Assembly (NCBI GenBank): GCA_900319255.1
Contig: ONNU01000158.1
Location: 1-32,180 of the forward strand
Origin: an uncultured Eubacteriales bacterium
GTDB lineage: Bacteria; Bacillota; Clostridia; Oscillospirales; Acutalibacteraceae
DNA: 32,180 nt
Direction: 5' to 3'
Every line of letters starts with the position of its first letter. Position 1 is the first letter of the stretch. The notes under the pieces are model-generated. The model did no database searches, had not been told where the DNA came from, and was given only the letters and a program-made list of their open reading frames with translations. Positions 1,100 through 29,204 of this stretch are shown here, in pieces. A program made the translations under genes and the position numbers.

Positions 1100-1108
1100 A
1101 AAAATCCC

Positions 1109-1146
1109 GGGGCTGCCGCACTACGAAAGCGGCAGCCCCTTTCACT
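1109..1146 (+). terminator. Rho-independent terminator after the regulator gene
   Basis: Perfect 11-bp stem GGGGCTGCCGC (1109-1119) / GCGGCAGCCCC (1129-1139) with a 9-nt loop, followed by a short TTT tract. It starts 10 nt after the stop codon. Confidence 0.7.
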
Positions 1147-1159
1147 ACCATGATAAAAT

Positions 1160-1262
1160 ATTAAATTTTTGTAACAATTCTATATTAGAGATAAATCAAG
1201 TGTTATTTGTAACGCTTTTGTACGCTTTGTGATGTATAATATAACATAATGCATAAAAAAAT
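1160..1262 (+). promoter_or_regulatory. Conserved operon-1 promoter/operator block (copy 1 of 2)
   Basis: Near-identical to 14609-14710. Contains the palindromic box TTGTAACAA (1169-1177). Direct repeats TTGTAAC (1207-1213) and TTGTACG (1218-1224) are 11 bp apart. Perfect TATAAT at 1235-1240. There is no TTGACA-like hexamer at a 16-18 nt spacing. Confidence 0.7.
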
Positions 1263-1375
1263 CTGATTTATTCCCGCATAATCAGGAATGATGAGCATTC
1301 TGACATTCTGCCGTGAGCCTGCGTGGAATGTTGGTGATATATCAGAATAAAAATTTCAGAAAAGAGGTATTTGTT

Positions 1376-1672
1376 ATGACAACAGAAGTAAAAAAAGCAA
1401 ACGGGGCTTACACGATCAAGATAAGCGGAGGTATTGATACCCTTACTGCGCCGGAGCTGGAGCAGACCTTCAAGGAAATCGAGCCGCAGGCAGATAAAGT
1501 CATTTTCGATATGAAAGAGGTCGATTATATTTCATCAGCAGGAATAAGAGTTCTTGTCTATGTACACAGAGCAATGTCATCAAAGGACGGGCTTGTGCTG
1601 CGGGGATTGAATAAAAACGTCAGCACGATCATCAGCCTGACCGGATTTGACAAGGTGCTGACTATCGAGTGA
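1376..1672 (+). CDS. STAS-domain protein (anti-sigma-factor antagonist, SpoIIAA/RsbV-like), paralog 1
   Basis: 98 aa. The ORF-track start (GTG 1313) is trimmed to ATG 1376, which sits 8 nt after AAAGAGG and matches the N terminus of the paralog at 14864. Carries the STAS signature DYISSAGIRVLV, including the Ser that is phosphorylated in SpoIIAA-type proteins, and the C-terminal LTGFDKVL. Confidence 0.9.
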   Translation: MTTEVKKANGAYTIKISGGIDTLTAPELEQTFKEIEPQADKVIFDMKEVDYISSAGIRVLVYVHRAMSSKDGLVLRGLNKNVSTIISLTGFDKVLTIE

Positions 1673-1741
1673 AATATATAAAAAGATTAAGCCGGCAGTT
1701 CATATCAATAACCTGAATTATTCAACCACAGAGGGTTTCAT

Positions 1742-3712: not shown

Positions 3713-3723
3713 GGAGAGGTACT

Positions 3724-12734: not shown

Positions 12735-14465
12735 ATGAAAAGAAAAGGAACTTTGCTACGAAATAAATTCAATGAGTATCTGATGTCCACCCTTGCCATG
12801 AGCGCATCGCTGTACCTTGCTGCTATTGTCGATAATATCATGGTGGGTAATATTCTCGGCACAGATGCTCTTGCGGCGGTGAATCTTACATCCCCGCTTG
12901 TCTATGTCAAAAATATCGTTTTCAGCATTTTCATCTACGGCGGCAATACGCTTGTCGCCATGTACAAGGGCAAACGCGATAATAAAAGCGCTGACAAGGC
13001 ATTTACATTTTCGCTGCTGTTCGGAATAATCGCATCAACGATCGTGATGACTGCCGGTATTCTTTTAGCTCAGCCAACTGCTACGTTCCTGTCGCAGGGG
13101 GGAGCGCTGTATGAAAATGCATTTGCGTATATCATTCCCCTGTGGGCAAGCGGACCGCTGATTGTTCTCAACAGCGGCTCTGCTGCCTATGTCAGGACAG
13201 ACGGTCTGAAAAAGCTTGCGATAGCCCTCCCCATATCTTCCAATGTAATCAATCTTGCGTGCGATTATATTTTTATGAAATGGTTCGGCTGGGGTGTTGC
13301 AGGCGCAGGATGGGCAACGGTTGTAGGCTATGCTATCGGCTCATTCCTTCTGATCATTTACTTTACTTCAAAGCAGCGCACCGTGCATTTTGTAAAGGTG
13401 TCATTCAGGGATATAAAGCAGCTTGCGGGAGTTCTTCAGACCGGACTTCCCACAGCGCTTATCCATGTCTGCAATGCTGTCCGCACCTATACGGTCAACG
13501 GCGTTATCCTTGCATCAGCAGGAACAGTGGGAATGCAGGTGGTAACGATCTGTTTGTCAGCGTTCAATGTTGCGCTGATCTTCATAAACGGCTCTGCAAC
13601 AACGCTTATGCCTATCTGCGGCGCCCTTTACGGAGAGCGTGACAATAACGGCGTCAGATATGTATTAAAGTTTTCGCTCATTGTCACGGAGATTATGTGC
13701 TTTGTTGTTCTTGCGGTGTTTGAGCTTTTTCCGGTGGCAGTCGGCGGATTGTTCGGAAAGCTTTCTCCCGAGACCGCCGCGCAGCTTGAGGGCGCTTTGC
13801 GTATATTCTCGGTCTGCATACCCTTCTATGGTATCTCCTATATTTTAAGAGCCTTCTATCAGTCAACCAAACAGCGGGGAGCTGCTTCACTCTTTACAAT
13901 ACTTGAGGGCGTGGTATTCATCGTTCCGATGATCTATATTTTCTCCAGAACCAGTCAGACGCTGATGTGGCTGTCCTTTGCATTGGCAGAGATAGCTGCG
14001 ATCATCACTACTGCGCTTACCATGCAGATCATTGCAAAGCGCAAAAAGCTCGGCAGCTTCCTTATGATAGACAGCTCCGGTGAATCGGGAGTGCTGGATA
14101 TGACGATAGATAATGAGGTCGAAAGCGCCGTTGTCGCATCGAGAAAGATCAGGAAATTCTGTAATGAAAATAATATCAGCGATACCCTCAGCACGATACT
14201 GACCGTTACCTCTGAGGAGCTTGCAGTCAACGCTGCAAAATATGCCTACAAAGGTAAAAGCGAAATTGATGTCTGCCTGAGAATTCTCGAAAACAAACTG
14301 GTGCTGAGATTCAGGGATAACGGTATGATATTCAATCCCACAGAATATATAGACGACTCGGGAAAAGAAGTCACCGGACTTCTGGTTGTCCGCAAGCTCA
14401 CTCCTGATATCAGCTATAACCGTGTTCTTGGCTTCAATGTTACTGTTGTTACTCTTGACAGATGA
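12735..14465 (+). CDS. MATE-family efflux transporter fused to a C-terminal RsbW/SpoIIAB-like domain, paralog 1
   Basis: 576 aa; starts 5 nt after the NRPS stop. The N-terminal ~445 aa are multi-helix with a MATE-like start (LAAIVDNIMVGNILGTDALAAVNL). After a KRKK stretch the tail reads SEELAVNAAKYAYKG and RFRDNGMIFNPTEYIDDSG. Confidence 0.88.
   Translation: MKRKGTLLRNKFNEYLMSTLAMSASLYLAAIVDNIMVGNILGTDALAAVNLTSPLVYVKNIVFSIFIYGGNTLVAMYKGKRDNKSADKAFTFSLLFGIIASTIVMTAGILLAQPTATFLSQGGALYENAFAYIIPLWASGPLIVLNSGSAAYVRTDGLKKLAIALPISSNVINLACDYIFMKWFGWGVAGAGWATVVGYAIGSFLLIIYFTSKQRTVHFVKVSFRDIKQLAGVLQTGLPTALIHVCNAVRTYTVNGVILASAGTVGMQVVTICLSAFNVALIFINGSATTLMPICGALYGERDNNGVRYVLKFSLIVTEIMCFVVLAVFELFPVAVGGLFGKLSPETAAQLEGALRIFSVCIPFYGISYILRAFYQSTKQRGAASLFTILEGVVFIVPMIYIFSRTSQTLMWLSFALAEIAAIITTALTMQIIAKRKKLGSFLMIDSSGESGVLDMTIDNEVESAVVASRKIRKFCNENNISDTLSTILTVTSEELAVNAAKYAYKGKSEIDVCLRILENKLVLRFRDNGMIFNPTEYIDDSGKEVTGLLVVRKLTPDISYNRVLGFNVTVVTLDR
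14093..14462 (+). other. RsbW/SpoIIAB-like (HATPase_c_2-type) tail domain of exporter 1
   Basis: N-box-like EELAVNAAKYAY and G1-like DNG. The lid region has only one Gly (EVTGLLVVRKL). Boundaries are approximate. Confidence 0.7.
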
Positions 14466-15352: not shown

Positions 15353-15365
15353 ATTACGAAGTTGA
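15353..15365 (+). repeat. 13-bp direct repeat ATTACGAAGTTGA, copy b
   Basis: Exact match to 15167-15179. Lies immediately 5' of the NRPS-2 RBS AAAGGAG. Confidence 0.85.
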
Positions 15366-15382
15366 GTAAAGGAGAATGCGTA

Positions 15383-18300
15383 ATGTACCAGAGTATCATC
15401 CGGAAAATTCTGGATAATGTCAAAAACGCCCCCGACACCATCGCGATCATTGACCAGGGCGAGGGCAATCAGTTTACCTACAGTGAATTTGAAGCATATG
15501 CTCGCAGGGTAGCAGGAAAGCTCAGCCGTCTGGGAGTGAGCCGCAATGACTTTGTAACGATCGAGCTTCCGAGAAACAAGGAATATATCGCATCAATGGC
15601 AGCTGTATGGATGACGGGAGCAGCATTTGTGCCTCTTTCACCGGCATACCCTGCCGAGAGAGTGCAGTTTATCCGCAGCGACTGCAGCGCAAAGGCTGTG
15701 ATCGACAGCGCCTTTTTAGAAAATATAGGAAACGAAGCTCCCATTGAAGATATTGCTTCAGTCGAACCCTCCGATCATTCCCTTATGATATACACCTCAG
15801 GCTCGACCGGAAAACCCAAGGGTGTACTTCATTCCCATCTCAGCATCAGCGACTCTGTATTCCGCTTTCTGGAATATGCAGACAGCCCCGCAGGCTTCCG
15901 TGCGGCGGTAGGCGCGCCGTTTACATTTGTTGCATCGGTGCAGGGCGTATTTGAGCCGCTTTGTGCCATTAACACCGCGGTGCTTGTTCCGTATGAGGCA
16001 ATGCGCGACCCTGTTCTGCTGGCAGATTTTATTGAGCAGTACCAGGTGAACAGATGTTTTATCAGCCCCAAAATGCTCAGGGTATTCAAAGCAAAGGGCA
16101 ATTCCCTTAAAATCGTATCCACCGGCAGCGAGCGTGTTTCAAATACATACAGCGCAGATTATACGATACAGGTAGCCTACGGTCAGACAGAATCCGCAGG
16201 CGCTGTTATGATGTTCAGAATTGATAAGAAATATGATAATACTCCCATCGGCAAGCCCATCGGAAATGTAAAGGCTTATCTTCTGGATGAAAATAATCAG
16301 CCTGCCGATGAAGGCGAGATGTGCCTTGCAGGCAATTTTGCAACAGGATATCTGAATCTGCCCGAGCTGACAGAAAAGACCTTTATCCCGAACCCCTTCT
16401 TTGAGCAGGACGGATTTCCGAAGCTTCTCAAAACAGGCGATATCTGCAAAAAAGGCGAAAACGGCAATTATATCTATCTGAACCGCAAGGACTGGATGGT
16501 CAAGATCAACGGTCAGCGCGTAGAACCGGGAGAGATCGAAGCTGTACTTAAAAACACTGACGGAATAGCCGATGCTGCGATCAAGGATTTTAAAAATACC
16601 TTCGGACAGGTTTATCTTGTCGCATATTATACAGAAAAGGAAGCAGTTGACGTTGAAGCGCTGAAAGCAAAGGTCTCCGCGCAGCTGCCGCCCTATATGA
16701 TACCCTCGTTCTTTGTCAGACTTGATAAGCTGCCGGTTAACCAGAACGGCAAGCTGGACAGAAACGCTCTGATCCCTCCCGAAGCAGGCGAATTCAAAAA
16801 TGAATACGCTGCTCCTGAAACAGAGCTGCAAAAGGCTCTTTGCTCAGCATTTGAAAAGATACTCGAAGCGGAGAACGTAGGTATTGACGATGATTTCTAT
16901 GCTCTCGGCGGAGATTCCATAAAGAGCGCGATGATTGCCCGTGAATGCGAGGCTTATCATCTTTCCACAGCTGTTATCCTTGCGGGCAAAACTCCCCGCG
17001 GTATCGAGCATATGATAAAGCGCTCAGCGCAGAAGGCATCTGTTGTCAGAAAGGAAAACAAGCCCAAGGTCTATCCGCTGACTTCCTCTGAACGGGGAAT
17101 GTATCTGGAGCAGAAGCTTTATCCTGATTCTGTTTCCTTCAACCTGAATATCGGCGTGATGATAAGCGGTGCAGACGCCGAAGCTGTCAGAACAACACTG
17201 GAGAGCATTTTCTCCTCACATGAAGCCTTCCGCTCCACCTACGGCGAGGAAAACGGTCTTCCTGTCCGCATCGTTACTGACAGGCTGCCCCAGATCATTG
17301 AAAAGACAGCCGCAGCAAGGGAAGATGTAATTAAGATAATTGACAGCTATGCCGAACCGTTTGATCTTTGCGCTGATATCCCGGTGCGCCCCACGCTTTA
17401 TACTATCTCAGACGGCGAGGTCATTCTCCATATGGCTATCCATCATATTGCTTTTGACGGCGGCTCTGCAAAGCCCTTTATCACAGAGCTGATTGACGGC
17501 TTGAACGGAAAAATGCCGGAGGCTGCTACGATAGATCTGTCGGATCTTTATGATTGTCAGACGGAGGAGCAGCATGAAAACGGACTTGCTTATTATCGAA
17601 ATGTCTTTGCCGATGGAGTTCCCGTGAACGAAATGCCGACTAAAGCCCGCCGCCCGAAGGTACATCCGGTTTCCGACCGGGAGATCGCCTTTGATCTCGA
17701 CACTGCTAAGGCAAGGCTGATGGATAAAGCTGCGCGCAAATTCGGCGTAACAAGATTTGAGCTGATCTTTGCGGCTATTTCTATGGCTCTCGGAAAGTAC
17801 ACCTCTTCCGAGGACGTTGTGCTGGGTATTCCCACCGATATGCGTCCCAACGGAGCGGAGGGTGTTATTGGAATGTTTGTCAATACAGCTCCCGTGCGTG
17901 TAAAACCGGTAAGAAGTATGGAGCTGAACGATTATTTTGCCGCTGTAAGCGAAGCTGTGCGCGGAGCTACATATGGAGCATCCCTGCCCTTTGAGGATAT
18001 CGTGGCGGAATTTGTCAAAACGCGCGACGAAAGCCGCAGCCCCATATTTGATGTCAGCGTAAACTATCTGCAAAAGCCGGCTGTTTACCGCAGCAGCGGT
18101 CTGATTGTGGATATGTATTCTCCATTGCAGAACATGACCCGTGATATAGCCATTGTCATAAGCAACAGCGAGGATGGTATGCGCTTCGTTGCAAGGTATT
18201 CCGGAGAGCTGTTTGAGGATGATATGATCGAAAGCTTCCTCGGACAGGTAAGGCATACTGTTGATATCTTTACAGGCAGCGAAGCTAAAACCGTCCGGGA

Positions 18301-21300
18301 TGCTCTTGCTTTGCCGGAAGCGCAGGCTGAGCGTCTGGAGGCATTTTCATCCGAAGCGACCGCAGAAATATCCGATGTACTGCTACACCGTGTCTTTGAA
18401 AGGGCAGCGTCAGCTTCACCGGAGAAAACAGCGCTCATAGCCTGCGATAAGACCGTAAGCTTTGAAGAGCTGAATAACAATGCGAACCGTATCGCCCACA
18501 GCCTTATGGAAAAAGGCATAAAGCCGGGTGACAGCGTTGTTCTGCTGCTGCCGAGAAGAAGCTTCTATTTTGAAGCAGTATTCGGCGTTTTGAAATCAGG
18601 CGCAGCCTTTGTACCCTGCGACCCTGAATATCCTCCGGACAGGATAAGCCACATTACCGAAGATTCCGGTTCGCGCTTTATCATAACGACAGAGGATCGC
18701 GCAGCAGATCATCCCTCCGAAAAGACGCTTATCATACATTCACTTTATGAAAACAGTGATACAGAGGATCCGGACGTTCAGATGTCAGGTCAGGATCTTG
18801 CGTATATGATATATACCTCAGGCTCCACAGGCAAGCCAAAGGGCGTTATGCTGACCCATGCCGGTATATGCAGCTTCTGCACCACACATCATGCAAATAT
18901 CCTGTATCAGCTTGCCGATGAGCAGATAGATACCATGCTTGCTGTCACCACCGTATCATTTGACCTTTCCCTCAAGGATACCCTTGGTATTCTTTGTAAC
19001 GGCAAGACCGTTGTATTTGCCTCAGAAACGGAGATGAATGATCCTCGTGAGCTGACAGCCCTGATAAATAAGAATCATGTGGACGCGATGAACGCAACAC
19101 CGTCCCGTTATATGCAGTATATGGAATATGAGCCATTCTGTGAAGCGCTCAGAGGCTGCACATTGGTAATGGCAGGCGGCGAGCTGTTCCCGGCAGCCTT
19201 GCTTGAAAAGCTGAAATCCCTTGAGATACCTCATATTATCAACACCTACGGTCCTACGGAAACTACCATATCCTGTAATATGGCATTTCTGCAGAATTTG
19301 GATCATGTCACAGTCGGAAGACCGCTGCTGAATTATAAAGAATATATTGTTGATAAATTCGGAGATCCGGCTCCCTGCGGAGTAGTAGGAGAGCTGTATG
19401 TGGGCGGACCGGGTGTTGCAAGAGGCTACCGGAATCTGCCTGAAAAAACAGCTCAGTCATTTGTTGATTACCGCGGACAGAGAATGTACCGCACAGGCGA
19501 TTATGCAAAATTTGACAGGGAAGGCAAGGTCTATATTCTCGGCAGACTTGACAGTCAGGTCAAGCTGCGCGGTCTGCGCATTGAGCTTTCCGAGATAGAG
19601 GAGCTTATCGCAGCGCAGCCTCACATTAAAAAAGCAGCTGTTGTCATCCGCAAGCTGGGAGGACAGGACAATCTCTGCGCCTACTTCACAGCCGATACGG
19701 AGATCGACATTAACGCATTGCGCAGCGAGCTGAAAAAGCATCTTACACATTATATGGTTCCGGCTGCATTTTTACAGATGGAGGAGCTGCCTGTTACAGC
19801 AAACGGCAAGACCGATACAAAGAGCCTGCCCGAGCTTACACTTGAAGCCCGGCAGACCACAGCGCCTCAAAGCGAAATGCAGCAGCGCATATTTGATATT
19901 GCTGCGGAGGTTCTCGGCAATAGCAATTTCGGAATTGAAACCGAATTGTATGCAGCAGGTCTGACATCACTTAACAGTGTAGGCTTCTGCATCAGACTCA
20001 GCGATGCATTCGGAGTGACCGTTCAGATCCGTGACCTGCGGGATAACGACACCATTGAAAAGCTTGAAGTCTTTATCAGGACGCTTGAACAGCAGGATAC
20101 CGAGGAATTTGAGATATTTGACGAATACTCCATTACCAAAACACAGGAGGGCATTTTCTTTGAAACAATGTCCCATCCTGATATTACGATCTATAATATC
20201 CCCACGCTTCTGAAGATAGATAAAGCAATAGATACGGAACGCCTGAAAAAGGCTGTGGCTGCTGCTGTCAACGCTCATCCGTACCTGATGACAAAAATGT
20301 TCATCAGCAAGATGGGTGAGATCAGACAAAAGAGAGCCGAAAGAAGCTTTGACGAAAGCGAGATCACCGATATCCGCTGCGGCAATATTGAAGAGGTAAA
20401 GAATGACCTTGTAAAGCCCTTTGATATTGAAAATGAAAAGCTGTACCGTTTCAGCGTGATCGAAACAGACGAAGGAAAATATCTGTTCCTTGATATACAC
20501 CATATTGTATTTGACGGCGAATCAAAGAAGATACTTCTGCGTGATATCACCGCAGCATATAACGGCGAAACGCTTACACCTGAAAAATACAGCGGCTATG
20601 AAGCTGCTTTGTCTGAGCAGAAGCTCCGCGCAGGCGAGCATTATGACAGATCAAAGAAATACTATACCGAGCTTCTGGACGGTGTTGAAAGCGACTGTCT
20701 GCCCATCGGCGATGTTCTTTCCGATTCTCAGAAAAAAGACGGCGGTACGCTGAATTTAAGCGGAAAAGAAAGCGTCCCATCATCTGTCAGAGCGTACTGC
20801 GCTGAAAATCATGTCAGTGAAAATGCATTCTATACAGCTGTATTCGGCTGGCTTCTTGGCAAATACTGCGGCAGAGAGGACGACTCATTGTTCATGACTG
20901 TCAATAACGGAAGAAACGATCCCCGTTTCCGTGACAGCGTATCCATGTTTGTACGCACATACCCCGTACTTTGCAAGCTCAGCACCAATTCTGTATCCGA
21001 CTATATCAGCGAGATCGGCAAACAGCTGTCAGACAGCCTGCAATATGACGTATATTCCTTTGCAGAGATAAGCCATGACCTTCATGTAAGCGCTGACGTG
21101 CTGTTTGTATATCAGAGCACCATGACTGACGGAAAAACATTCACCTTCTGCGGCGAAAAGGCAGAGAACGTCCCCCTGACCTTTGACGAGGAAAAGGCAA
21201 AGATCGAGCTGCTCATTTATCCCAACGGCGACACCCTGAGCTATCATGTTTCATATGATGCAAACACCTATACCGAAGATTTCATCCGGGATATGCTTGC

Positions 21301-24300
21301 GGCATATGAGCGCGCTCTTGCAGAATTTACAAAGCGTTCAGATACCTCAGAGATCCAGCTTGTTGACGAAGAGACCCTTGAAAGACTTGAAGAGAAAAAC
21401 CGCACCGAAAGTGATTATGAGATAACCGATATAGTAACACTGTTCCGCCGCCGCGCAGAGCAGTCCCCGGATAATATTGCAGTAGTATATCTCGATCACG
21501 TTTATACATATAAGGAAGTTGACCGTATCACTGAGAATATTGCATCATTCCTGAAAAGCAAGGGCATAGGGAAGGATCAGGCTGTATCCGTAATTATACC
21601 GCGCTGTGAATATATGCCCATCGCAGCTCTCGGCGTGTTAAAGGCAGGCGCAGGCTATCAGCCGCTTGACCCGAGCTATCCGCCGGAACGTCTTGAATTT
21701 ATGATACAGGATGCAGACGCAAAATATCTCATAGCTGACAGAACGCTTATGGACAGACTTCCGAATTATAACGGACCTGTACTTTATACCGATGAGATAC
21801 CCGATCTACCCGACGGTGAAAAAATAAGTGAAAACCCCGATCCGGGCGATCTGTTCATCATGCTTTATACCTCCGGCTCCACAGGCATACCAAAAGGCGT
21901 AATGCTTGAGCATCATAACCTGTGCAGCTTCTGCAACTGGTACAGACAATACTACAATATGGATGAAACGAGCCGCGCCGCAGCATATGCAAGCTATGGC
22001 TTTGACGCTCATATGATGGATATGTATCCCATACTGATTTCCGGAGGTCAGCTGCATATTATAGACGAGGCAATAAGACTTGACCTTCTGGCTATCAAGG
22101 ATTATTTCTGTAAAAACGGCATAACCCACAGCTTTATCACAACGCAGGTGGGCAGACAATATGCTGATCTGTTCCCCGATGCAAAGTATCCGCATTATCT
22201 CAGTGTCGGCGGAGAAAAGCTCGTTCCAATCGCTCCGCCTGAGGGCTTCCGTTTCTTCAACGCCTACGGTCCGACAGAATGTACTATCTTTACACATACA
22301 TATCCGGTTGATAAGATGTACAGGCGCGTTCCCATCGGAAGACCGCTGTTCAATATGAAGCAGTATGTTGTTGATAAAAACCTCAACCGGCTTCCCTTTG
22401 GTATTCCCGGCGAGCTGATAGTAGCAGGACATCAGGTGGGCAGAGGCTATCTTAACCGCCCCGAAAAGAACGCCGAGGTCTTTATCCGCAATCCCTTCTC
22501 TGATGAGCCGGGCTACGAGCATGCCTATCGCACAGGGGATATTGTGCGCATACTCAGTGACGGCAGCGTTGATATCATCGGAAGAAATGACGGTCAGGTC
22601 AAGATCCGCGGCTTCCGTATCGAGTTAAGCGAGGTCGAGGGCATCATCCGGAAGTTCCCCGGTATCAAGGATGCTACAGTACAGGCATTTGACGAAACCG
22701 GCGGCGGTAAGTTCATTGCGGCATATGTTGTTGCTGACGAGCCTGTTGATATTGACGCTCTGGGCGCTTTCATCAAACAGGAGAAGCCTGCATATATGGT
22801 TCCTGCCGTTACGATGCAGATCGACCGCATACCGCTGAATCAGAACCAGAAGGTCAACAAGCGCGCCCTGCCCGAACCGGTCAAAGCAGGAAAGACCTCC
22901 GATAATGAACATCAGGCGCGCCCTCTTACACGTTTTGAGGAAGAGATCGCATCGGTGGCAAAGCGTCTTTTAGGAGACATGGAAATGCATCCCGCAGAGC
23001 CGCTGACAAGCTATGGTCTGACAAGTATCAGCGCTATCGGACTCGTTGCAACGCTTGCAGATAAATTCAATGTGGAAATTTCTGCGCCCAGACTGCTTGA
23101 CGGCGCCAGCATCATAGATATTGAGAATATGATCTTTGAGGATTGGATGAAGCAGGGCTTTGCAAATAAACCCGAGCCTCAGAACGCCGCTGCGGAGGAA
23201 AAGCCAGTAACAGACAGAGCGCCGCTTTCAGCGGTACAGCTTGCAGTCTATTATGATGCAATGAAAAACGAAGCTGACGTTGTATATAATATTCCCATGT
23301 GCCTGCAATTTGACAAGCTGGATGCGCAGAAGCTTGCTGAGGCTGTGAAAAAGGCGGTAGCCGCACATAGCTATCTCAATACACATATAGAGCTTTGCGA
23401 CGGCGAGCTTATCCAGGTAAGGGATGACAATGTTCAGACACAGGTCGAGATCCTTACGCTTAACGAGGAAGAACTGGAGTATTACAAGAATACATTTATC
23501 CGACCCTTTGATCTGCACACAGGACCCCTTTATCGTTTTGCAGTGATCAATTCGGGAGAAAAGACCTATCTGTTCCTTGACATCCACCATCTGATATATG
23601 ACGGAATGTCAAGCGGAGTGCTTCTGCGGGATATCGGCAGAGCATATACAGGCGAAGCTCTTTCCGCAGAGGAATATACCTATTTTGATTATGCGCAGGA
23701 AAGCGATGAATTCAAGAGATCCGATGCATATGCAGAATCGGTATCATATTTTGATAAGATGTTCGAGCGCTTTGAAGCGCCCACTGAGATACCGACCGAT
23801 AAACCGGGAAGCGCAGAAAACGGCGTGATCGCCGAAGCATACTGCCCTGTTTCAAAGCAGGCTGTAGATACCTTCTGCCGTCAGAATAATATGCAGCCCT
23901 CTGCATTTTTCCTTGCTGCGGTATTCTATACAGTTTCCCGTTTTGCCGGAACAAAGAATGTTTACCTCTCCACTATTTCATCAGGACGTGAAAGTGTAAA
24001 AATGCGCCGTACAGTAGGTATGTTTGTGCATACACTTCCGCTTGCTATGAGCTTTGAAGAAAACCGCGATGTTCTGGAGCTTATCAATGCATCCAACAGC
24101 GTGATGAGGGGCAGTATACAGAATGAAAACTATCCCTTTGCTGAGATCGCCGCAAAATACGGATATAAAACCGAGATAATGTACGAATGCCAGATCGGTG
24201 TCGTTGCAGACGGCGGTGAGATCGGCGGCAATGCATATAAGAGTGTACGTCTGCGTTTTGAAGCTCCGAAATTCAAGACAGTTTTTGCTGTTGTAGAGCA

Positions 24301-27300
24301 TGATAACGACTATATGATCCTGATACGCTATAATGATGCGCTGTATTCAAAACCGTATATGCAGACGCTGGCTCAGTCGGTGAAGAATGTCACGGAAAGA
24401 ATGACAGCAGATAAATCTGCCGCAGTCAACTCTCTTCCGCTGATAACCGAAGATGAAAAGCAGTCGCTTCTTGCTTTGGGAATTTCCGCTAAGCAGGAGA
24501 TCGAAACAAAGCTTCTTCATAAGCTGTTTGAAAAAGCAGCGGCAGCCGATCCTGATAAAACAGCCCTTATTGCCTGCGATAAAACACTGACATACAGCGA
24601 GCTGAACGGAAATGCCAATCGTATCGCTCATTATCTGATGGATAAGGGAGTGAAGCCCGGAGACAGCATTGTTCTGCTGCTGCCGAGAAGAAGCAGCTTT
24701 TTCGAGGCAATGTTCGGCGTACTGAAAACGGGCGCAGCCTTTGTTCCCTGCGATCCGGAGTATCCAGCCGAAAGGATCAGCCACATAACAGACGACTCCG
24801 GCTCCCGCTTCATCATTACCACAGAGGATCATGCATCCGATTATCCGGCAGAAAAAGTCCTTTTGATAGATTCACTGTATGACAGCGATAATACAGAAAA
24901 TCCCGATGTTGCAGTGACAGGCGATGATCTTGCATATATGATCTACACCTCAGGCTCCACCGGAAAGCCCAAGGGCGTAATGCTGCGGCATGAGGGCATA
25001 TGCAACTACCTGCTGCCGCATCCCGCAAATATGCATATCTATAAGATCAGGAAGCTTGTCAGCGCATACCTTTCTGTCACCACCGTTTCCTTTGATATGT
25101 CCTTCAAGGAGCATACAGCGGCATTGTGTAACGGCAAAACTCTGGTATTTGCAGATGAGAATGAGATGAACGACCCCCGGGCGCTGGCAGAGCTTATGGA
25201 AAAGCATCATGTGGATTGTATCAATGCGACACCGTCACGTCTGCAGCAGTATATGGAATTCAAGCCCTTCAGAGAGAGGCTTGGCAGCTGCAAGGTGGTT
25301 CTTTCCGGCGGTGAAGCATATCCCATTTCCCTGAGAAATGCAATAAAGGAATGCTCGGACGATATCATCATTATCAATACCTATGGTCCTACAGAGATCA
25401 CCGTTTCAAGCAACGCTGCGATAATCAACGAAACGGATCATATCCATATCGGCAGACCGCTGTTCAATTACAGCGAATATATTGTAGATTCCGATCTGAA
25501 TCTTCTGCCCCGCGGAGTTATCGGCGAACTGCTTATCGGCGGAGCAGGCGTTGCAAAGGGATACCGTAACCTGCCCGAGCAGACCGAAAAGAGCTTTATT
25601 GAATGGGGCGGAGAGCGAGTATACCGTTCCGGCGACTATGCTAAATGGGATGCAGACGGAAATGTTATCATTCTCGGCAGAATGGACGGACAGATCAAGC
25701 TCCGCGGACTTCGTATCGAGCTTGGTGAGATCGAAGGACTTATTGAGCAGCAGCCTGGCATAAGACGCGCTGCGGCAGCTGTACGCAAGCTGAGCGGACG
25801 TGAAAATCTCTGCGCATGGTTTACTGCGGATCGTGACATCGACATTACTCAGCTGAGGGAAGCGCTTTCCCAGAAGCTGACACATTATATGGTTCCCGCA
25901 GCAATGATGCAGGTAGAATCCATTCCCGTTACACCAAACGGAAAGACAAATGTAAAAGCCCTGCCTGATCCCGAAGTTATAGACAGCGGCGAATATGTAG
26001 CGCCTGTCGGCAAGGCAGAGGAATTCTTCTGCGGACTGTTTGCCGAGATACTGGGTGTGGAAAAGGTCGGCGCTACGGATGACTTCTTCTCCATCGGCGG
26101 AACAAGTCTTGCAGTCACCGGCATTATGATAAAGGCTACCGAAAACGGCTACGAGCTTACCTACGGCGATGTATTCAAGTACACGACTCCCCGTCAGCTT
26201 GCCGCGAAATTCACAGGTGAGGGAGACACCAAGACACTTTCAGCCGCACGCTTTGATCTGTATAATTACGATAAGATCCATGAGCTGCTGTCACACAATA
26301 CATCCGGCTCCTTTGTCAACGGAGAAAAGCGCCCCATTGGCAATATCCTTCTGACAGGCGCCACCGGATTCATGGGTATCCATGTGCTTGCAGAATACCT
26401 GAATTCCTACAGCGGCACAGCATATTGTATGCTTCGCAAGGGACGCTTTGAATCCGTTGCGGCAAGGGTCAGAAATATGCTTTACTATTATTTCGGCGAT
26501 GAGTTTGAAGATAAGCTGGATCGTGTTCAGGCATTTGAGGGCGATGTAACAAGCTTTGACAGCTTCAGCCCCCTGCTTTCACTTCCGGTAGATACAGTCT
26601 TTAACTGTGCCGCAAGTGTAAAGCATTTCTCCAGCGGCACTGATATTGAGGATATCAATGTAGGCGGAGTTCAGAACTGTATCCGCTATTGTCTGGAGAA
26701 GAATTCAAGACTTATCCATTTCTCCACGACCTCGGTTGCAGGCGCAGTTGTAGCAGAACCGGGCGCGCCTCAGCGTTTCCTTGATGAGCATATTCTGTAC
26801 TACGGACAGATTCTTGAGAACCAGTATACATCTTCCAAGCTTCTTGCAGAGCGTGAAGTATTTGAAAGCATGGTTGAAAACGGACTTGATGCCAAGGTCA
26901 TCCGTGTCGGCACACTTGCGCCGCGTGAATCCGACGGCGAATTCCAGATCAACTTCCTCAGCAACAGCTTCATGGGACGCCTGAGAAGCTTTGCGATGCT
27001 GAAGGTATTCCCGTACAATATGATAAACTTCCCTGTCCGCATGGGTTCCATCGACGAAAGCGCAAAAGCGTTTATGCTGCTTGCCCAGACACCACGTGAG
27101 TGCTGTCTTTTCAATGCGATAAACACCCATTCAGCTCCGCTGGTGGATATCATCCATATAATGAAGGAGCTGGGAATAGAAATAGATATCACCTATAACG
27201 AGGTATTTGAAAAGGAGCTTGAAAAAGCAGAGGCAGATCCGGATAAGGCTGCGATCCTGCAAAGTATGCTTGCCTATAAGAACATGAACGGCAAAAATAC

Positions 27301-27451
27301 AATACCTGTCGCTTCAAAATTTGATTATACCTCAAAGGTTCTTGCTTGTATGGGCTTCTACTGGAAAAACACCGACAGCGGATATATCCGCCGCTTCATT
27401 AAGGCGCTTATCGGACTGGAATTCTTTGATGAAAACAATCTTAACCGATAA
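15383..27451 (+). CDS. Tetramodular NRPS with terminal reductase: A-T-C-A-T-C-A-T-C-A-T-R
   Basis: The ORF-track start (TTG 15362) is trimmed to ATG 15383, 8 nt after AAAGGAG. A3 motifs at about 15784-15825, 18796-18845, 21856-21900 and 24930-24980. Carrier Ser codons: 16916-16918 (GGDS), 19967-19969 (GLTS), 23024-23026 (GLTS), 26105-26107 (GGTS). HHxxxDG at 17441-17461, 20498-20518 and 23585-23605. Reductase motifs GATGFMG (26357-26377) and YTSSK (26825-26839). Confidence 0.97.
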   Translation: MYQSIIRKILDNVKNAPDTIAIIDQGEGNQFTYSEFEAYARRVAGKLSRLGVSRNDFVTIELPRNKEYIASMAAVWMTGAAFVPLSPAYPAERVQFIRSDCSAKAVIDSAFLENIGNEAPIEDIASVEPSDHSLMIYTSGSTGKPKGVLHSHLSISDSVFRFLEYADSPAGFRAAVGAPFTFVASVQGVFEPLCAINTAVLVPYEAMRDPVLLADFIEQYQVNRCFISPKMLRVFKAKGNSLKIVSTGSERVSNTYSADYTIQVAYGQTESAGAVMMFRIDKKYDNTPIGKPIGNVKAYLLDENNQPADEGEMCLAGNFATGYLNLPELTEKTFIPNPFFEQDGFPKLLKTGDICKKGENGNYIYLNRKDWMVKINGQRVEPGEIEAVLKNTDGIADAAIKDFKNTFGQVYLVAYYTEKEAVDVEALKAKVSAQLPPYMIPSFFVRLDKLPVNQNGKLDRNALIPPEAGEFKNEYAAPETELQKALCSAFEKILEAENVGIDDDFYALGGDSIKSAMIARECEAYHLSTAVILAGKTPRGIEHMIKRSAQKASVVRKENKPKVYPLTSSERGMYLEQKLYPDSVSFNLNIGVMISGADAEAVRTTLESIFSSHEAFRSTYGEENGLPVRIVTDRLPQIIEKTAAAREDVIKIIDSYAEPFDLCADIPVRPTLYTISDGEVILHMAIHHIAFDGGSAKPFITELIDGLNGKMPEAATIDLSDLYDCQTEEQHENGLAYYRNVFADGVPVNEMPTKARRPKVHPVSDREIAFDLDTAKARLMDKAARKFGVTRFELIFAAISMALGKYTSSEDVVLGIPTDMRPNGAEGVIGMFVNTAPVRVKPVRSMELNDYFAAVSEAVRGATYGASLPFEDIVAEFVKTRDESRSPIFDVSVNYLQKPAVYRSSGLIVDMYSPLQNMTRDIAIVISNSEDGMRFVARYSGELFEDDMIESFLGQVRHTVDIFTGSEAKTVRDALALPEAQAERLEAFSSEATAEISDVLLHRVFERAASASPEKTALIACDKTVSFEELNNNANRIAHSLMEKGIKPGDSVVLLLPRRSFYFEAVFGVLKSGAAFVPCDPEYPPDRISHITEDSGSRFIITTEDRAADHPSEKTLIIHSLYENSDTEDPDVQMSGQDLAYMIYTSGSTGKPKGVMLTHAGICSFCTTHHANILYQLADEQIDTMLAVTTVSFDLSLKDTLGILCNGKTVVFASETEMNDPRELTALINKNHVDAMNATPSRYMQYMEYEPFCEALRGCTLVMAGGELFPAALLEKLKSLEIPHIINTYGPTETTISCNMAFLQNLDHVTVGRPLLNYKEYIVDKFGDPAPCGVVGELYVGGPGVARGYRNLPEKTAQSFVDYRGQRMYRTGDYAKFDREGKVYILGRLDSQVKLRGLRIELSEIEELIAAQPHIKKAAVVIRKLGGQDNLCAYFTADTEIDINALRSELKKHLTHYMVPAAFLQMEELPVTANGKTDTKSLPELTLEARQTTAPQSEMQQRIFDIAAEVLGNSNFGIETELYAAGLTSLNSVGFCIRLSDAFGVTVQIRDLRDNDTIEKLEVFIRTLEQQDTEEFEIFDEYSITKTQEGIFFETMSHPDITIYNIPTLLKIDKAIDTERLKKAVAAAVNAHPYLMTKMFISKMGEIRQKRAERSFDESEITDIRCGNIEEVKNDLVKPFDIENEKLYRFSVIETDEGKYLFLDIHHIVFDGESKKILLRDITAAYNGETLTPEKYSGYEAALSEQKLRAGEHYDRSKKYYTELLDGVESDCLPIGDVLSDSQKKDGGTLNLSGKESVPSSVRAYCAENHVSENAFYTAVFGWLLGKYCGREDDSLFMTVNNGRNDPRFRDSVSMFVRTYPVLCKLSTNSVSDYISEIGKQLSDSLQYDVYSFAEISHDLHVSADVLFVYQSTMTDGKTFTFCGEKAENVPLTFDEEKAKIELLIYPNGDTLSYHVSYDANTYTEDFIRDMLAAYERALAEFTKRSDTSEIQLVDEETLERLEEKNRTESDYEITDIVTLFRRRAEQSPDNIAVVYLDHVYTYKEVDRITENIASFLKSKGIGKDQAVSVIIPRCEYMPIAALGVLKAGAGYQPLDPSYPPERLEFMIQDADAKYLIADRTLMDRLPNYNGPVLYTDEIPDLPDGEKISENPDPGDLFIMLYTSGSTGIPKGVMLEHHNLCSFCNWYRQYYNMDETSRAAAYASYGFDAHMMDMYPILISGGQLHIIDEAIRLDLLAIKDYFCKNGITHSFITTQVGRQYADLFPDAKYPHYLSVGGEKLVPIAPPEGFRFFNAYGPTECTIFTHTYPVDKMYRRVPIGRPLFNMKQYVVDKNLNRLPFGIPGELIVAGHQVGRGYLNRPEKNAEVFIRNPFSDEPGYEHAYRTGDIVRILSDGSVDIIGRNDGQVKIRGFRIELSEVEGIIRKFPGIKDATVQAFDETGGGKFIAAYVVADEPVDIDALGAFIKQEKPAYMVPAVTMQIDRIPLNQNQKVNKRALPEPVKAGKTSDNEHQARPLTRFEEEIASVAKRLLGDMEMHPAEPLTSYGLTSISAIGLVATLADKFNVEISAPRLLDGASIIDIENMIFEDWMKQGFANKPEPQNAAAEEKPVTDRAPLSAVQLAVYYDAMKNEADVVYNIPMCLQFDKLDAQKLAEAVKKAVAAHSYLNTHIELCDGELIQVRDDNVQTQVEILTLNEEELEYYKNTFIRPFDLHTGPLYRFAVINSGEKTYLFLDIHHLIYDGMSSGVLLRDIGRAYTGEALSAEEYTYFDYAQESDEFKRSDAYAESVSYFDKMFERFEAPTEIPTDKPGSAENGVIAEAYCPVSKQAVDTFCRQNNMQPSAFFLAAVFYTVSRFAGTKNVYLSTISSGRESVKMRRTVGMFVHTLPLAMSFEENRDVLELINASNSVMRGSIQNENYPFAEIAAKYGYKTEIMYECQIGVVADGGEIGGNAYKSVRLRFEAPKFKTVFAVVEHDNDYMILIRYNDALYSKPYMQTLAQSVKNVTERMTADKSAAVNSLPLITEDEKQSLLALGISAKQEIETKLLHKLFEKAAAADPDKTALIACDKTLTYSELNGNANRIAHYLMDKGVKPGDSIVLLLPRRSSFFEAMFGVLKTGAAFVPCDPEYPAERISHITDDSGSRFIITTEDHASDYPAEKVLLIDSLYDSDNTENPDVAVTGDDLAYMIYTSGSTGKPKGVMLRHEGICNYLLPHPANMHIYKIRKLVSAYLSVTTVSFDMSFKEHTAALCNGKTLVFADENEMNDPRALAELMEKHHVDCINATPSRLQQYMEFKPFRERLGSCKVVLSGGEAYPISLRNAIKECSDDIIIINTYGPTEITVSSNAAIINETDHIHIGRPLFNYSEYIVDSDLNLLPRGVIGELLIGGAGVAKGYRNLPEQTEKSFIEWGGERVYRSGDYAKWDADGNVIILGRMDGQIKLRGLRIELGEIEGLIEQQPGIRRAAAAVRKLSGRENLCAWFTADRDIDITQLREALSQKLTHYMVPAAMMQVESIPVTPNGKTNVKALPDPEVIDSGEYVAPVGKAEEFFCGLFAEILGVEKVGATDDFFSIGGTSLAVTGIMIKATENGYELTYGDVFKYTTPRQLAAKFTGEGDTKTLSAARFDLYNYDKIHELLSHNTSGSFVNGEKRPIGNILLTGATGFMGIHVLAEYLNSYSGTAYCMLRKGRFESVAARVRNMLYYYFGDEFEDKLDRVQAFEGDVTSFDSFSPLLSLPVDTVFNCAASVKHFSSGTDIEDINVGGVQNCIRYCLEKNSRLIHFSTTSVAGAVVAEPGAPQRFLDEHILYYGQILENQYTSSKLLAEREVFESMVENGLDAKVIRVGTLAPRESDGEFQINFLSNSFMGRLRSFAMLKVFPYNMINFPVRMGSIDESAKAFMLLAQTPRECCLFNAINTHSAPLVDIIHIMKELGIEIDITYNEVFEKELEKAEADPDKAAILQSMLAYKNMNGKNTIPVASKFDYTSKVLACMGFYWKNTDSGYIRRFIKALIGLEFFDENNLNR
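26335..27448 (+). other. Terminal SDR-type thioester reductase (R) domain of NRPS 2
   Basis: LTGATGFMGIHVL, HFSTTSV and YTSSK. Clearly paralogous to 11605-12726. Confidence 0.85.
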
Positions 27452-27461
27452 GGAGGACATT

Positions 27462-29204
27462 ATGGAAAGAAACGGAAGATTAATAAAACATAAATATAAC
27501 GAATACCTTCTTTCTACGCTTGCCATGAGCGGATGTGCTTCAATCGCGACTATCGTTGACAGGATCATGGTGGGAAATCTGCTGACAGCCAACGATCTTA
27601 ACGCAACGAATCTTATCGGTCCGCTTATCTATGTCCTCAATATGATCTTTGCGCTGTTTATTTACGGCGGAAACACTCTCGCAGTGACCTTCAAGGGAAA
27701 ACGAGATCAGAAGACTGCAAATAAATGCTTTACCATTTCTATCTTAGGCGGTACTTGTTTCATGGCGCTATTTGCGATAGCGGGTCTGATTTTTCAGGTC
27801 CCGCTGTCGAACCTGCTGTGCATAGGAAAAGAGGAATTGTATAAGCCGGTATCAGAATATCTTGTTCCCGTGCTGTTTCTTGGAATGCTTATGATACTGC
27901 TCAACGGCACTTCGGCTTTTATCAGGGTCGACGGCTTGAGAAAGCTTGCCATAATCATTCCCATTGTATCAAATGCGCTGAATCTGACCCTTGATTATGT
28001 CTTTATGGGCATCTGCAAATTTGGTATAGCCGGCGCTGGCTGGGCGACAAATCTGGGCTTTGGGGCTTCGCTTTTCCTGCTGATACCGTATTTCCGTTCC
28101 GAAAAACGCACAGTATTCTTTACAAAGATAGGCTTCAAGGATATCAAGCTTATGCTGAATTCCTTCCATCTGGGTCTGGCAACGGCGCTTATGTATCTTT
28201 GCATGTTTCTCAAGACATTTTTCCTCAACAGGATCATCGTTATTACCCTTGGCGCTGTGGGAGGACAGATACTCGTTGTCTGCTCAGCAGTCATGAGCGT
28301 CGGCAATATATTCTTTACCGGAACAGCTCAGACCATGCTGCCGATAAACGGAGCATTGTACGGAGCGCAGGATTATAAGGGCATCAGGCATCTTTTCAAA
28401 ACCTCAATGCTTGTGATGGAAATAATTTGCGTTGTAATAATGGCAATATTTATGATATTCCCCCTGCAAACAGCCGCAATTTTCAATGTCACAAGCCCAG
28501 AGGCGCAGGAACTTCTGCCAAGCTCGATCTTTATGTTCAGCCTTTGTATCCCGCCCACCGGTATGCTTTTTATCATGCGCTCACATTATCAGTCCACCGG
28601 TCATCGCAATGCTGCAACGGTGCTGACTGTGCTGGAGGGAACGGTATTCTTTATCCCCATACTCTGGGCATTATCACGGATCAATCCTGATCTTATGTGG
28701 CTGTCTCATGTAATATCGGTGGTATTGTCTATTATTGTAATGGGTCTTGCAATGTGCATCAGCGCAATGCGGAAAGGAAGATCTGCATTTTTGCTGCTGC
28801 CGAAGCAGGATGACGGAAGCTCCTTCGATTTCAGCATAGAAAACAAGATCGAAGCAGCAGTAGAAGCATCTGGGAAGATCACTGAATATTGCCTGCAAAA
28901 CGGCATAAGCGAAGAGGTTGCAAGTATTATCGGCGTTTCGGTAGAGGAGCTGTGTGTTAATACAGCTAAATATGCAGTAAGCTCCAAATCGGATATGATA
29001 GATATTTTCCTGAAGATCACACCGGAAACAGTAATTCTGAAGGTGCGGGATAATGGAATGATCTTTAATCCCACAGAATATATTGACAATTCAGGCGAAT
29101 CCATCACCGGTCTGAAGATGGTCAGGAGCATCAGTTCAAAGGTGGAATATAACCGTGTAATCGGCTTCAATAATACCATCGTTACCGTCAACCGCACGCT
29201 CTGA
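27462..29204 (+). CDS. MATE-family efflux transporter fused to a C-terminal RsbW/SpoIIAB-like domain, paralog 2
   Basis: The ORF-track start (27321) lies inside the NRPS gene. It is trimmed to ATG 27462, 5 nt after AAGGAGG (27450-27456) and 10 nt after the NRPS stop. About 580 aa. MATE-like N terminus (IATIVDRIMVGNLLTANDLNATNL). The tail reads SVEELCVNTAKYAV and VRDNGMIFNPTEYIDNSG. Confidence 0.88.
   Translation: MERNGRLIKHKYNEYLLSTLAMSGCASIATIVDRIMVGNLLTANDLNATNLIGPLIYVLNMIFALFIYGGNTLAVTFKGKRDQKTANKCFTISILGGTCFMALFAIAGLIFQVPLSNLLCIGKEELYKPVSEYLVPVLFLGMLMILLNGTSAFIRVDGLRKLAIIIPIVSNALNLTLDYVFMGICKFGIAGAGWATNLGFGASLFLLIPYFRSEKRTVFFTKIGFKDIKLMLNSFHLGLATALMYLCMFLKTFFLNRIIVITLGAVGGQILVVCSAVMSVGNIFFTGTAQTMLPINGALYGAQDYKGIRHLFKTSMLVMEIICVVIMAIFMIFPLQTAAIFNVTSPEAQELLPSSIFMFSLCIPPTGMLFIMRSHYQSTGHRNAATVLTVLEGTVFFIPILWALSRINPDLMWLSHVISVVLSIIVMGLAMCISAMRKGRSAFLLLPKQDDGSSFDFSIENKIEAAVEASGKITEYCLQNGISEEVASIIGVSVEELCVNTAKYAVSSKSDMIDIFLKITPETVILKVRDNGMIFNPTEYIDNSGESITGLKMVRSISSKVEYNRVIGFNNTIVTVNRTL
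28822..29201 (+). other. RsbW/SpoIIAB-like (HATPase_c_2-type) tail domain of exporter 2
   Basis: N-box-like EELCVNTAKYA and G1-like DNG. The lid region has a single Gly (SITGLKMVRSI). Boundaries are approximate. Confidence 0.7.

Follow-up and report, generated by a model that had tools for sequence, protein, structure and literature searches.

A mosaic terminal adenylation domain in a reductase-terminated peptide synthetase of the rumen

Introduction

Does the substrate pocket of the last adenylation (A) domain in an assembly line share the history of the domain that surrounds it? The question is raised by contig ONNU01000158.1 of assembly GCA_900319255.1, from an uncultured Eubacteriales bacterium, which we analysed over its full length of 32,180 nucleotides (nt), read on the forward strand and referred to here as the window. 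The window encodes two paralogous non-ribosomal peptide synthetases (NRPSs), NRPS 1 and NRPS 2, which are built from A, thiolation (T) and condensation (C) domains and end in a reductase (R). A first-pass annotation of the sequence had described the fourth A domain of NRPS 2 (window 24,509-25,966; hereafter N2A4) as a natural chimera in which a specificity core of one type, X, sits in a frame of another type, Y. We keep X and Y as names for the two lineages of A domains and cores, and name the other A domains of the window by gene and module in the same way. Our analysis leads us to conclude that N2A4 is very probably a recombinant A domain, in which the pocket subdomain of the terminal domain, ancestrally of the Y lineage and kept as such in RUG11404, was replaced by a segment of the X lineage.

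The protein in question and the two comparators from its paralogue are as follows.

15362-27451, + strand: NRPS 2, 4029 amino acids (aa), domain order A1-T-C-A2-T-C-A3-T-C-A4-T-R (from the list of open reading frames, Pfam and motif positions)
6697-8349, + strand: NRPS 1 A2 (N1A2), comparator; X-type throughout, in a divergent frame; code DMKNIGTVSK
9772-11424, + strand: NRPS 1 A3 (N1A3), comparator; Y-type throughout; code DLKNMGTISK; uniform identity to the orthologous domains of L008 and L010

NRPS 1 (3724-12729, 3001 aa, A-T-C-A-T-C-A-T-R) was compared with its orthologues in L008 and L010, to whose corresponding domains N1A2 is uniformly 72-87% identical. Pfam places four AMP-binding, three Condensation, PP-binding and NAD_binding_4 domains in NRPS 2, and in both proteins a terminal reductase (NAD_binding_4; residues 2634-2846 of NRPS 1 and 3664-3874 of NRPS 2) gives a T-R ending in place of a thioesterase. 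The genomes closest to the window in a genome scan are uncultured rumen Ruminococcus/Clostridiales metagenome-assembled genomes (MAGs), and many gut metagenome runs from cattle and sheep contain the window sequence itself at >99% identity. We compared NRPS 2 with its orthologues in RUG11404 (L006; 4037 aa), RUG135 (L007; 4033 aa) and RUG12253 (L005; truncated N-terminally by the flank limit).

The fourth A domain of NRPS 2 is a mosaic

Comparison of the orthologues showed the mosaic directly. From residue ~1300 to its end, NRPS 2 of the window is 75-85% identical to that of RUG11404, except for a block at ~3200-3350 where identity falls to 49-59%; RUG12253 and RUG135 show the same dip against RUG11404 and none against the window. 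Taking residues 3217-3352 as a strict core and comparing them with the flanks of the same A domain, we found that N2A4 and the A4 of RUG11404 share 48.9% identity in the core and 79.9% in the flanks (p = 1e-10), N2A4 and the A4 of RUG12253 share 81.6% and 83.0% (not significant), and N2A4 and the X-type A2 (module 2) of RUG11404 share 76.5% and 56.2% (p = 4e-5). The A4 orthologues of RUG12253 and RUG135 are uniformly ~80% identical to the window and carry the graft, and as a control NRPS 1 is uniform against its own orthologues along its length. Around the core, the N part from residue 3046 and the C part together with the T domain are 78-84% identical to RUG12253 and RUG135 and 80/80/70% identical to RUG11404; C3 upstream and T4-R downstream are syntenic with the orthologues, and the C-A linker, Asub and the Asub-T interface are native by orthologue identity. 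Beyond these orthologues, a protein search with the A domain returned only fragments, at no more than 64% identity over the full domain, and two decayed relatives.

Segment trees made by neighbour joining (NJ) from Kimura protein distances (22-24 A domains, rooted on N2A3, bootstrapped) gave incongruent rather than congruent phylogenies for the N part, core and C part, which counts in favour of a mosaic. Bootstrapping recovered the four A4 orthologues as a clade in 95% of replicates for the N part, 99.7% for the C part, 100% for the two combined and 0% for the core. In the core tree, N2A4 and the A4 domains of RUG12253 and RUG135 fall in 96.7% of bootstraps within an X clade made up of the N1A2 group, the module-2 orthologues and the terminal domains of a dimodular NRPS family, and the A4 of RUG11404 joins L012 and the Y types.

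The same pattern is visible among the paralogues of the window, where it had first been read by eye. A MAFFT alignment of the seven A domains of the window, followed by 40-residue sliding-window identity, reproduced the mosaic as described, including the proposal that the part 5' of the A3 motif is Y-like and not N1A2-like: residues 3046-3184 of N2A4 are 73% identical to N2A2, 69% to N1A3 and 48% to N1A2. Over residues 3185-3295 the nearest paralogue is N1A2 (73%, with N2A2 at 60% and N1A3 at 58%), over residues 3296-3400 all three are about equally near with no clear preference, and past residue 3400 the order is N1A3 (64%), N2A2 (61%) and N1A2 (54%). The linker and T domain that follow match N1A3 alone among the window paralogues, both belonging to terminal modules. 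With the four related domains of the window alone (N2A4, N2A2, N1A3 and N1A2), X-like sites make up 31 of 54 inside the block and 10 of 118 outside it, and the corresponding two-breakpoint chi2 of 48.9 was reached in none of 500 permutations.

The domain is intact despite being a mosaic, as are the NRPS 2 reading frame and its A-domain motifs. Pfam AMP-binding covers residues 3056-3401, motifs A3, A5 and A8 lie at 3196, 3339 and 3439, and the equivalent of K517 (the A10 lysine) is at residue 3528. The best match among solved structures is to the A domains of LgrA (E = 5e-194), and in an AlphaFold model (predicted local distance difference test score 89.7) the graft corresponds to five beta-alpha repeats following the P-loop, a flavodoxin-like alpha/beta subdomain.

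Junctions and extent of the graft

We divided N2A4 into the following segments.

24509-24925, + strand: N part of A4; NRPS 2 residues ~3050-3188; terminal-module frame lineage, 78-83% identical to the A4 of RUG12253, RUG11404 and RUG135
24926-25009, + strand: 5' junction zone; includes the A3/P-loop motif TSGSTGKPKG at 24,947-24,976
25010-25417, + strand: minimal X-type grafted core; NRPS 2 residues 3217-3352; nine of the ten specificity-code positions and motifs A4 and A5
25418-25489, + strand: 3' junction zone; loop and conserved 'IGRPL' box ~15-35 residues past A5 (NTYGPTE, 25,376-25,396)
25490-25966, + strand: C part of A4; rest of Acore from A6, and Asub; terminal-module frame lineage, continuous with T4-R; 80-81% identical to the A4 of RUG12253, RUG11404 and RUG135 and 64% to N1A3

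To place the edges we used 59 diagnostic alignment columns, defined as those without a shared state between an X set of 12 domains and a Y set of five. The window copy of N2A4 has the Y state up to residue 3168; the last Y state common to the three graft-bearing A4 domains is residue 3188, and the first X-state column common to them is at residue 3217-3219. Within the graft zone (residues 3188-3352, 33 columns), 27 columns have the X state, one the Y state and five neither, and a one-residue insertion at 3335, which every X type has and every Y type lacks, is in the X state. On the 3' side the last X state is residue 3352 and the first Y state residue 3360, with mainly Y states onward. The graft accordingly extends over residues 3217-3352 at minimum and 3189-3359 at maximum, or roughly 136-171 residues.

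Breakpoints were evaluated by maximum chi2 with permutation rather than with RDP or GARD. On nucleotides, chi2 values ranged from 45 to 109 (61-109 as two-breakpoint maxima); with the A4 of RUG11404 as frame parent and five different X parents, the two-breakpoint maximum chi2 (MaxChi) was reached in none of 300 permutations for any parent pair, so that both this test and that on the four window domains support the proposed breakpoints. They fall at 24,922-25,010 and at 25,430-25,489, and the A4 domains of RUG12253 and RUG135 give the same positions. The 5' breakpoint brackets the switch that the first-pass annotation had placed at about 24985, and the 3' switch, for which a range of about 25,400-25,740 had been offered, is found at the low end of that range, at 25,418-25,489. 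Orthologues, segment trees, diagnostic columns and breakpoint permutations agree on an X-type pocket segment within a Y-lineage frame.

The longest stretches of identical nucleotides shared by N2A4 and its paralogues also lie in the 5' junction zone (29+17+17 nt with N1A2, 29+20 nt with N1A3), and the A3 motif is an exact repeat of at least 29-31 nt common to the paralogous A domains. Logan contigs of several runs end or branch exactly there (window 24923-24987), their loose ends resembling other paralogues, for example the sequence upstream in N1A2. Contigs from independent bovine and sheep metagenome runs cover 21,988-26,200 and 22,844-26,200 at >99% identity and cross both junctions.

Direction of the exchange and competing histories

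Against the Y-type paralogues (N1A3, L008 A3 and L012), the A4 of RUG11404 is homogeneous, at 67-71% in the core and 66-67% in the flanks (not significant), and N2A4 is heterogeneous, at 53% in the core and 66% in the flanks (p = 0.006). The A4 frames group with 'pure X' frames in 0-1% of bootstraps. Because the A4 of RUG11404 is uniform and the A4 frames stand apart from pure-X frames, the simplest history is that a Y-type terminal domain was overwritten by X, and from these sequence comparisons we favour a polarity in which Y would be ancestral and X grafted. A scan of metagenome contigs with the A4-specific C part and T4, meant to find further A4-frame lineages that would polarise the event, gave nothing closer than 49%.

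As to the source of the core, the nearest sampled X cores over residues 3185-3295 are those of L080 and L014 (83%) and of RUG11404 A2 (82%). The graft had been likened to N1A2, and it does belong to the same X lineage (73% over this stretch), but N1A2 is neither its closest X core nor a demonstrated donor. We rejected N1A2 as donor, its core being only 62-73% identical as against 76-83% for module-2 orthologues and dimodular terminal domains.

We infer the following history. The replacement would have occurred in the common ancestor of the window, RUG12253 and RUG135 lineages, or spread by later exchange among them, and would have run from the A3 P-loop to the loop ~15-35 residues past A5. It probably proceeded by homologous recombination or gene conversion, with crossovers in the two most conserved nucleotide stretches that bound the subdomain. 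The donor would be an unsampled X-lineage domain, to which the nearest sampled relatives are module 2 of the same gene and a terminal domain of the dimodular family, and the C-A linker, N-terminal Acore, A6-A10 region, Asub and Asub-T4-R context would be native. Since these flanks were kept, the chimera would still dock with C3, T4 and R and load the choice of the X pocket as the last residue, which would then be released reductively, presumably as a peptide aldehyde.

Several observations weigh against this account. The terminal A domains of the dimodular A-T-C-A-T-R family, which is widespread, carry X cores with the code DMKNMGTVSK. The deep node that polarises the event, joining the A4 frame with the Y-bearing frames of N1A3 and L012, has 54% bootstrap, in trees that are NJ on short segments and not maximum likelihood. 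In the core tree the grafted cores diverge basally within the X clade and single out no donor, and the strict core of N2A4 is 62% identical to that of N1A2 with flanks at 53% (p = 0.1), other X-type cores being nearer at 76-83%. Synonymous sites are saturated even between orthologues and give no independent signal, and the X and Y specificity codes are nearly identical.

The X cores of the dimodular relatives and the 54% node would both suit the reverse polarity, in which the terminal A domain of NRPS 2 had an X core from the outset, the RUG11404 lineage replaced its core by Y, and the window domain is unrecombined, leaving just its likeness to Y-type frames to be accounted for; with RUG11404 sister to the other three, moreover, parsimony on the four orthologues cannot polarise the exchange. 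We nevertheless consider this history improbable, given that the A4 of RUG11404 is homogeneous against every Y-type paralogue, that N2A4 is heterogeneous against X types (p = 4e-5) as well as against Y types, that A4 and pure-X frames almost never group, and that a close donor for the RUG11404 core was not found among the sampled domains.

Much the same data bear on a history without recombination, which we judge very unlikely, in which the core of N2A4 drifted or was selected to X-like residues through substrate convergence or through rate heterogeneity along the domain. Apart from the saturation of synonymous sites, it could draw on the unusual conservation of X cores across very different frames, a sign of strong constraint on the segment. 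It is opposed by the count of X-state columns in the graft zone (27 of 33, one Y-state), of which only two or three are first-shell code positions; by the shared one-residue indel; by edges that are sharp on both sides and located at conserved motifs; by the lack of excess core divergence from the window in RUG12253 and RUG135, as against a twofold excess in RUG11404; and by a bootstrap conflict of 100% versus 0%. In a synonymous-codon test of recombination against convergence, codon sharing was at chance even between orthologues that are 80% identical. Synonymous saturation thus leaves the codon test silent, and the case for a recombinant N2A4 rests on the shared non-pocket states, the indel, the sharp edges and the uniformity of the grafted cores.

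That paralogous A domains were joined at shared k-mers during assembly or binning has next to no plausibility: the paralogues do share exact matches of at least 29 nt at the A3 motif, where Logan contigs branch, but the mosaic is present in three independently assembled, species-level MAGs at 72-86% identity, single contigs of unrelated runs cross both junctions, and the putative parents are only 55-80% identical in nucleotides, not ~100%.

Specificity codes and the putative product

The graft had been said to span pocket positions 235-331 in GrsA numbering, and the code positions indeed map to NRPS 2 residues 3245-3349. This mapping used a PheA sequence that passed a self-check, with K517 in place and the code DAWTIAAICK returned. 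X codes read DMKN[M/L/I]GTVSK and Y codes DLKN[M/L]GTISK. They differ at 236 (M/L), at 330 (V/I) and by S/A at 300 or 301 depending on the alignment register (next to the GGE box), and several second-shell positions differ as well. To call the segment a specificity core is right as a statement of position, since it holds the code positions, but with X and Y codes that part ways at no more than two or three conservative sites, a change of substrate is only hypothetical. Neither code returned a match in a search of the literature.

What we infer of the chemistry is correspondingly guarded. By comparison with known Glu and Orn codes, K239 hints, with low confidence, at an acidic substrate. That X and Y have been stably kept side by side in NRPS 1 of three species is a weak indication that the two are not equivalent, and by analogy the terminal reductase and the gut Ruminococcus relatives suggest peptide-aldehyde products.

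A second mosaic and the movement of cores between modules

The first-pass annotation had also held that X and Y occupy swapped positions in the two assembly lines as a consequence of the A4 graft. Listed by module, the cores are as follows.

RUG11404 NRPS 2: [.. X, Z, Y]
RUG12253 and RUG135 NRPS 2: [.. X, Z, X]
Window NRPS 2: [.. Y, Z, X]
NRPS 1: [.. X, Y]

The swapped arrangement is thus present, but it does not follow from the A4 graft alone, for N2A2 has undergone a second event of its own.

18350-19320, + strand: second mosaic, N part and core of NRPS 2 A2; A4-frame-like N part and N1A3-type Y core

The N part of N2A2 (nt ~18,350-18,830) resembles the A4 frame (57-90% in 30-residue windows) and its core (nt ~18,830-19,320) the N1A3-type Y core (77-97%). 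Module 2 of RUG12253, RUG11404 and RUG135 has an X core and is 72-92% identical among the three; against their A2 domains, window N2A2 is 50-65% identical up to residue ~1290 and 82-87% thereafter, where it is native A2. A one-breakpoint chi2 of 71-113 was reached in none of 500 permutations and places the breakpoint at nt 19,306-19,430 with second parents of the N1A3, L008 A3 or RUG11404 A4 type. The 5' switch, from C1-type to A4-frame-type sequence, lies at residues ~990-1005, at the C-A boundary, and the internal junctions are at A3 and between A5 and A6, as in N2A4. A metagenome contig (X1) spans 17,800-19,569 with two mismatches. N2A2 is a second, independent mosaic, found only in this genome among the four NRPS 2 orthologues compared, and because it is separately mosaic, the arrangement with Y at module 2 and X at module 4 needed at least two events. 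A single reciprocal exchange of X and Y between modules 2 and 4 was rejected: RUG12253 and RUG135 have X in both, and the Y core of N2A2 is nearest to the N1A3 type, not the A4 type.

In 120-aa windows, A1-T-C1 of NRPS 2 resembles A1-T-C1 of NRPS 1 at 36-52% (30-33% in the A1 core), T3-C3 resembles T2-C2 at 35-55%, and T4-R resembles T3-R at 52-63%. N2A2 matches N1A3 at 68-83% and not N1A2, which implies that A-domain sequences moved later than the duplication that gave NRPS 1 and NRPS 2.

Two unrelated types of module 1 occur among the NRPS 2 orthologues. In the window, module 1 and C1 (15362-18300) are 14-55% identical to RUG11404 (L006:2174-5200) and RUG135 (L007:2189-5200), which are themselves 47-87% alike, and RUG12253 is 48-82% identical to the window from residue 548. 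In the dimodular family the commonest A1 code is VAQFSGAGAK, which is also that of the window, and the A1 domains of RUG11404 and RUG135 resemble A1 of NRPS 1. This suggests whole-module exchange. On an Acutalibacteraceae MAG fragment (L009:1-4377), the A domain combines X and Y states at the diagnostic columns, is 84% identical to N1A3 in its C part, and is probably another mosaic of this family.

Across the genes compared, the X and Y cores form a series: RUG11404 has [X..Y], RUG12253 and RUG135 have [X..X], the window has [Y..X] and NRPS 1 has [X,Y]. From this one could read the tri- and tetramodular reductase-terminated NRPSs of the rumen as a natural combinatorial cassette system, in which near-isofunctional X and Y pockets are moved repeatedly by way of the A3 P-loop and the post-A5 loop and the X/Y difference is functional (for instance in tuning the residue of the aldehyde warhead) rather than neutral gene conversion; we offer this tentatively and regard it as rather doubtful.

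Relation to known and engineered subdomain swaps

In nature NRPSs diversify predominantly by partial Acore substitutions in which the C-A linker and the Asub-T interface are retained, and conserved core motifs have been suggested as the sites of recombination (Baunach et al. 2021, Mol Biol Evol, PMC8097286); an earlier natural case is the replacement of A domains in mcyB/mcyC of microcystin (PMC2174460). N2A4 resembles the swaps of PMC8097286 in that part of Acore is replaced, the C-A linker, Asub and Asub-T interface are native and the junctions lie near core motifs. The logic of detection is also the same, flanks tracking the orthologue and core another module, and with 80% in the flanks and 49% in the core to RUG11404 A4, and 76% in the core and 56% in the flanks to RUG11404 A2, N2A4 is a subdomain swap in the sense of Baunach et al. 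It differs in that most natural events described there exchange a longer part of Acore, whereas the unit of N2A4 is short, from A3 to just past A5, and also in its host, an uncultured rumen Ruminococcus-like member of the Clostridia, in the reductase that terminates the NRPS, and in the exchange of cores with almost the same code.

Among designed A domains, the closest likeness appears to be to swaps of the flavodoxin-like subdomain (FSD). The unit of N2A4, at 136-171 aa with nine of the ten code residues and beta-alpha repeats, is like an FSD, and its junctions in PheA numbering lie at ~190-211 (at or just after the P-loop) and ~334-361. Engineered FSD swaps are reportedly due to Kries et al. 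in 2015, with cut sites said to be at ~T221 in GrsA and ~352, so that the natural 5' junction would lie upstream of the first and the 3' junction overlap the second. In later engineering, the unit was 139 aa with nine of ten code residues, and success came above ~55% identity (Thong et al. 2021, PMC8616955). The incoming and replaced cores of N2A4 are 49% identical over residues 3217-3352 and 60% over 3185-3400, around that >55% guideline (PMC8616955).

Reductase-terminated NRPSs of gut Clostridia make peptide aldehydes or pyrazinones (Guo et al. 2017), and ruminopeptin comes from Ruminococcus bromii (Schneider & Balskus 2018), both as summarised in PMC12327764. The window genes share with these systems the A-T-C-A-T-R logic, the terminal NAD_binding_4 reductase and gut or rumen Ruminococcus-like hosts; they differ in being tri- and tetramodular, and their likeness to the rup and bgc genes was judged on architecture. 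The window genes have many dimodular relatives, one host being Ruminococcus sp. JL13D9.

N2A4 is thus a new and well-documented instance, in a rumen NRPS family, of a known kind of recombination, and it reveals no new principle. Its value lies in an unusually clean before-and-after series, four tetramodular orthologues with ~80% identical frames of which one has the old core and three the new, and in the second, independent swap in module 2 of NRPS 2, which likewise ends in the A5-A6 region. A chimera of cores ~50-60% identical persists as an intact reading frame in at least three species-level lineages, and its junctions offer A-domain engineering cut sites that are already field-tested in nature. 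In the rumen, NRPS clusters that end in a reductase, probably producers of peptide aldehydes, diversify by the mechanism known from cyanobacterial, Bacillus and Pseudomonas pathways. The organism is common in bovine and sheep gut metagenomes.

Decayed relatives and neighbouring genes

A contig from ENA (L001:7078-8622, protein P0028) carries a relative of the end of NRPS 2, 83-85% identical from mid-core A4 through T-R. This 5'-truncated remnant begins within the A4 core and adjoins a gene block with a serine recombinase and a DUF927 protein, which suggests disruption by a mobile element. Further decayed relatives of NRPS 2 (L003:2293-5560 and L004:900-4166, protein P0026) are broken into short reading frames. 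In P0026 an in-frame fusion joins the end of T3 to A4 directly ahead of the 'IGRPL' box, with loss of C3 and of the A4 N part and core, and the deletion ends in the same post-A5 region as the graft junction of N2A4.

Each NRPS gene of the window is followed by a MatE and HATPase_c_2 fusion (12735-14465 and 27321-29204), an efflux domain with a C-terminal domain like an anti-sigma-factor kinase, and in Ruminococcus sp. JL13D9, whose genome is complete, the dimodular NRPS is followed by the same fusion (L061:14233-15990). As the reading frame at 27321 overlaps the stop of NRPS 2 by 131 nt, its true start is probably further downstream. Upstream of NRPS 1 (293-3712) lie a response-regulator gene and a HAMP-SpoIIE(PP2C)-HATPase_c_2 gene, which together with the HATPase_c_2 fusions suggest cluster-linked regulation of the partner-switching type.

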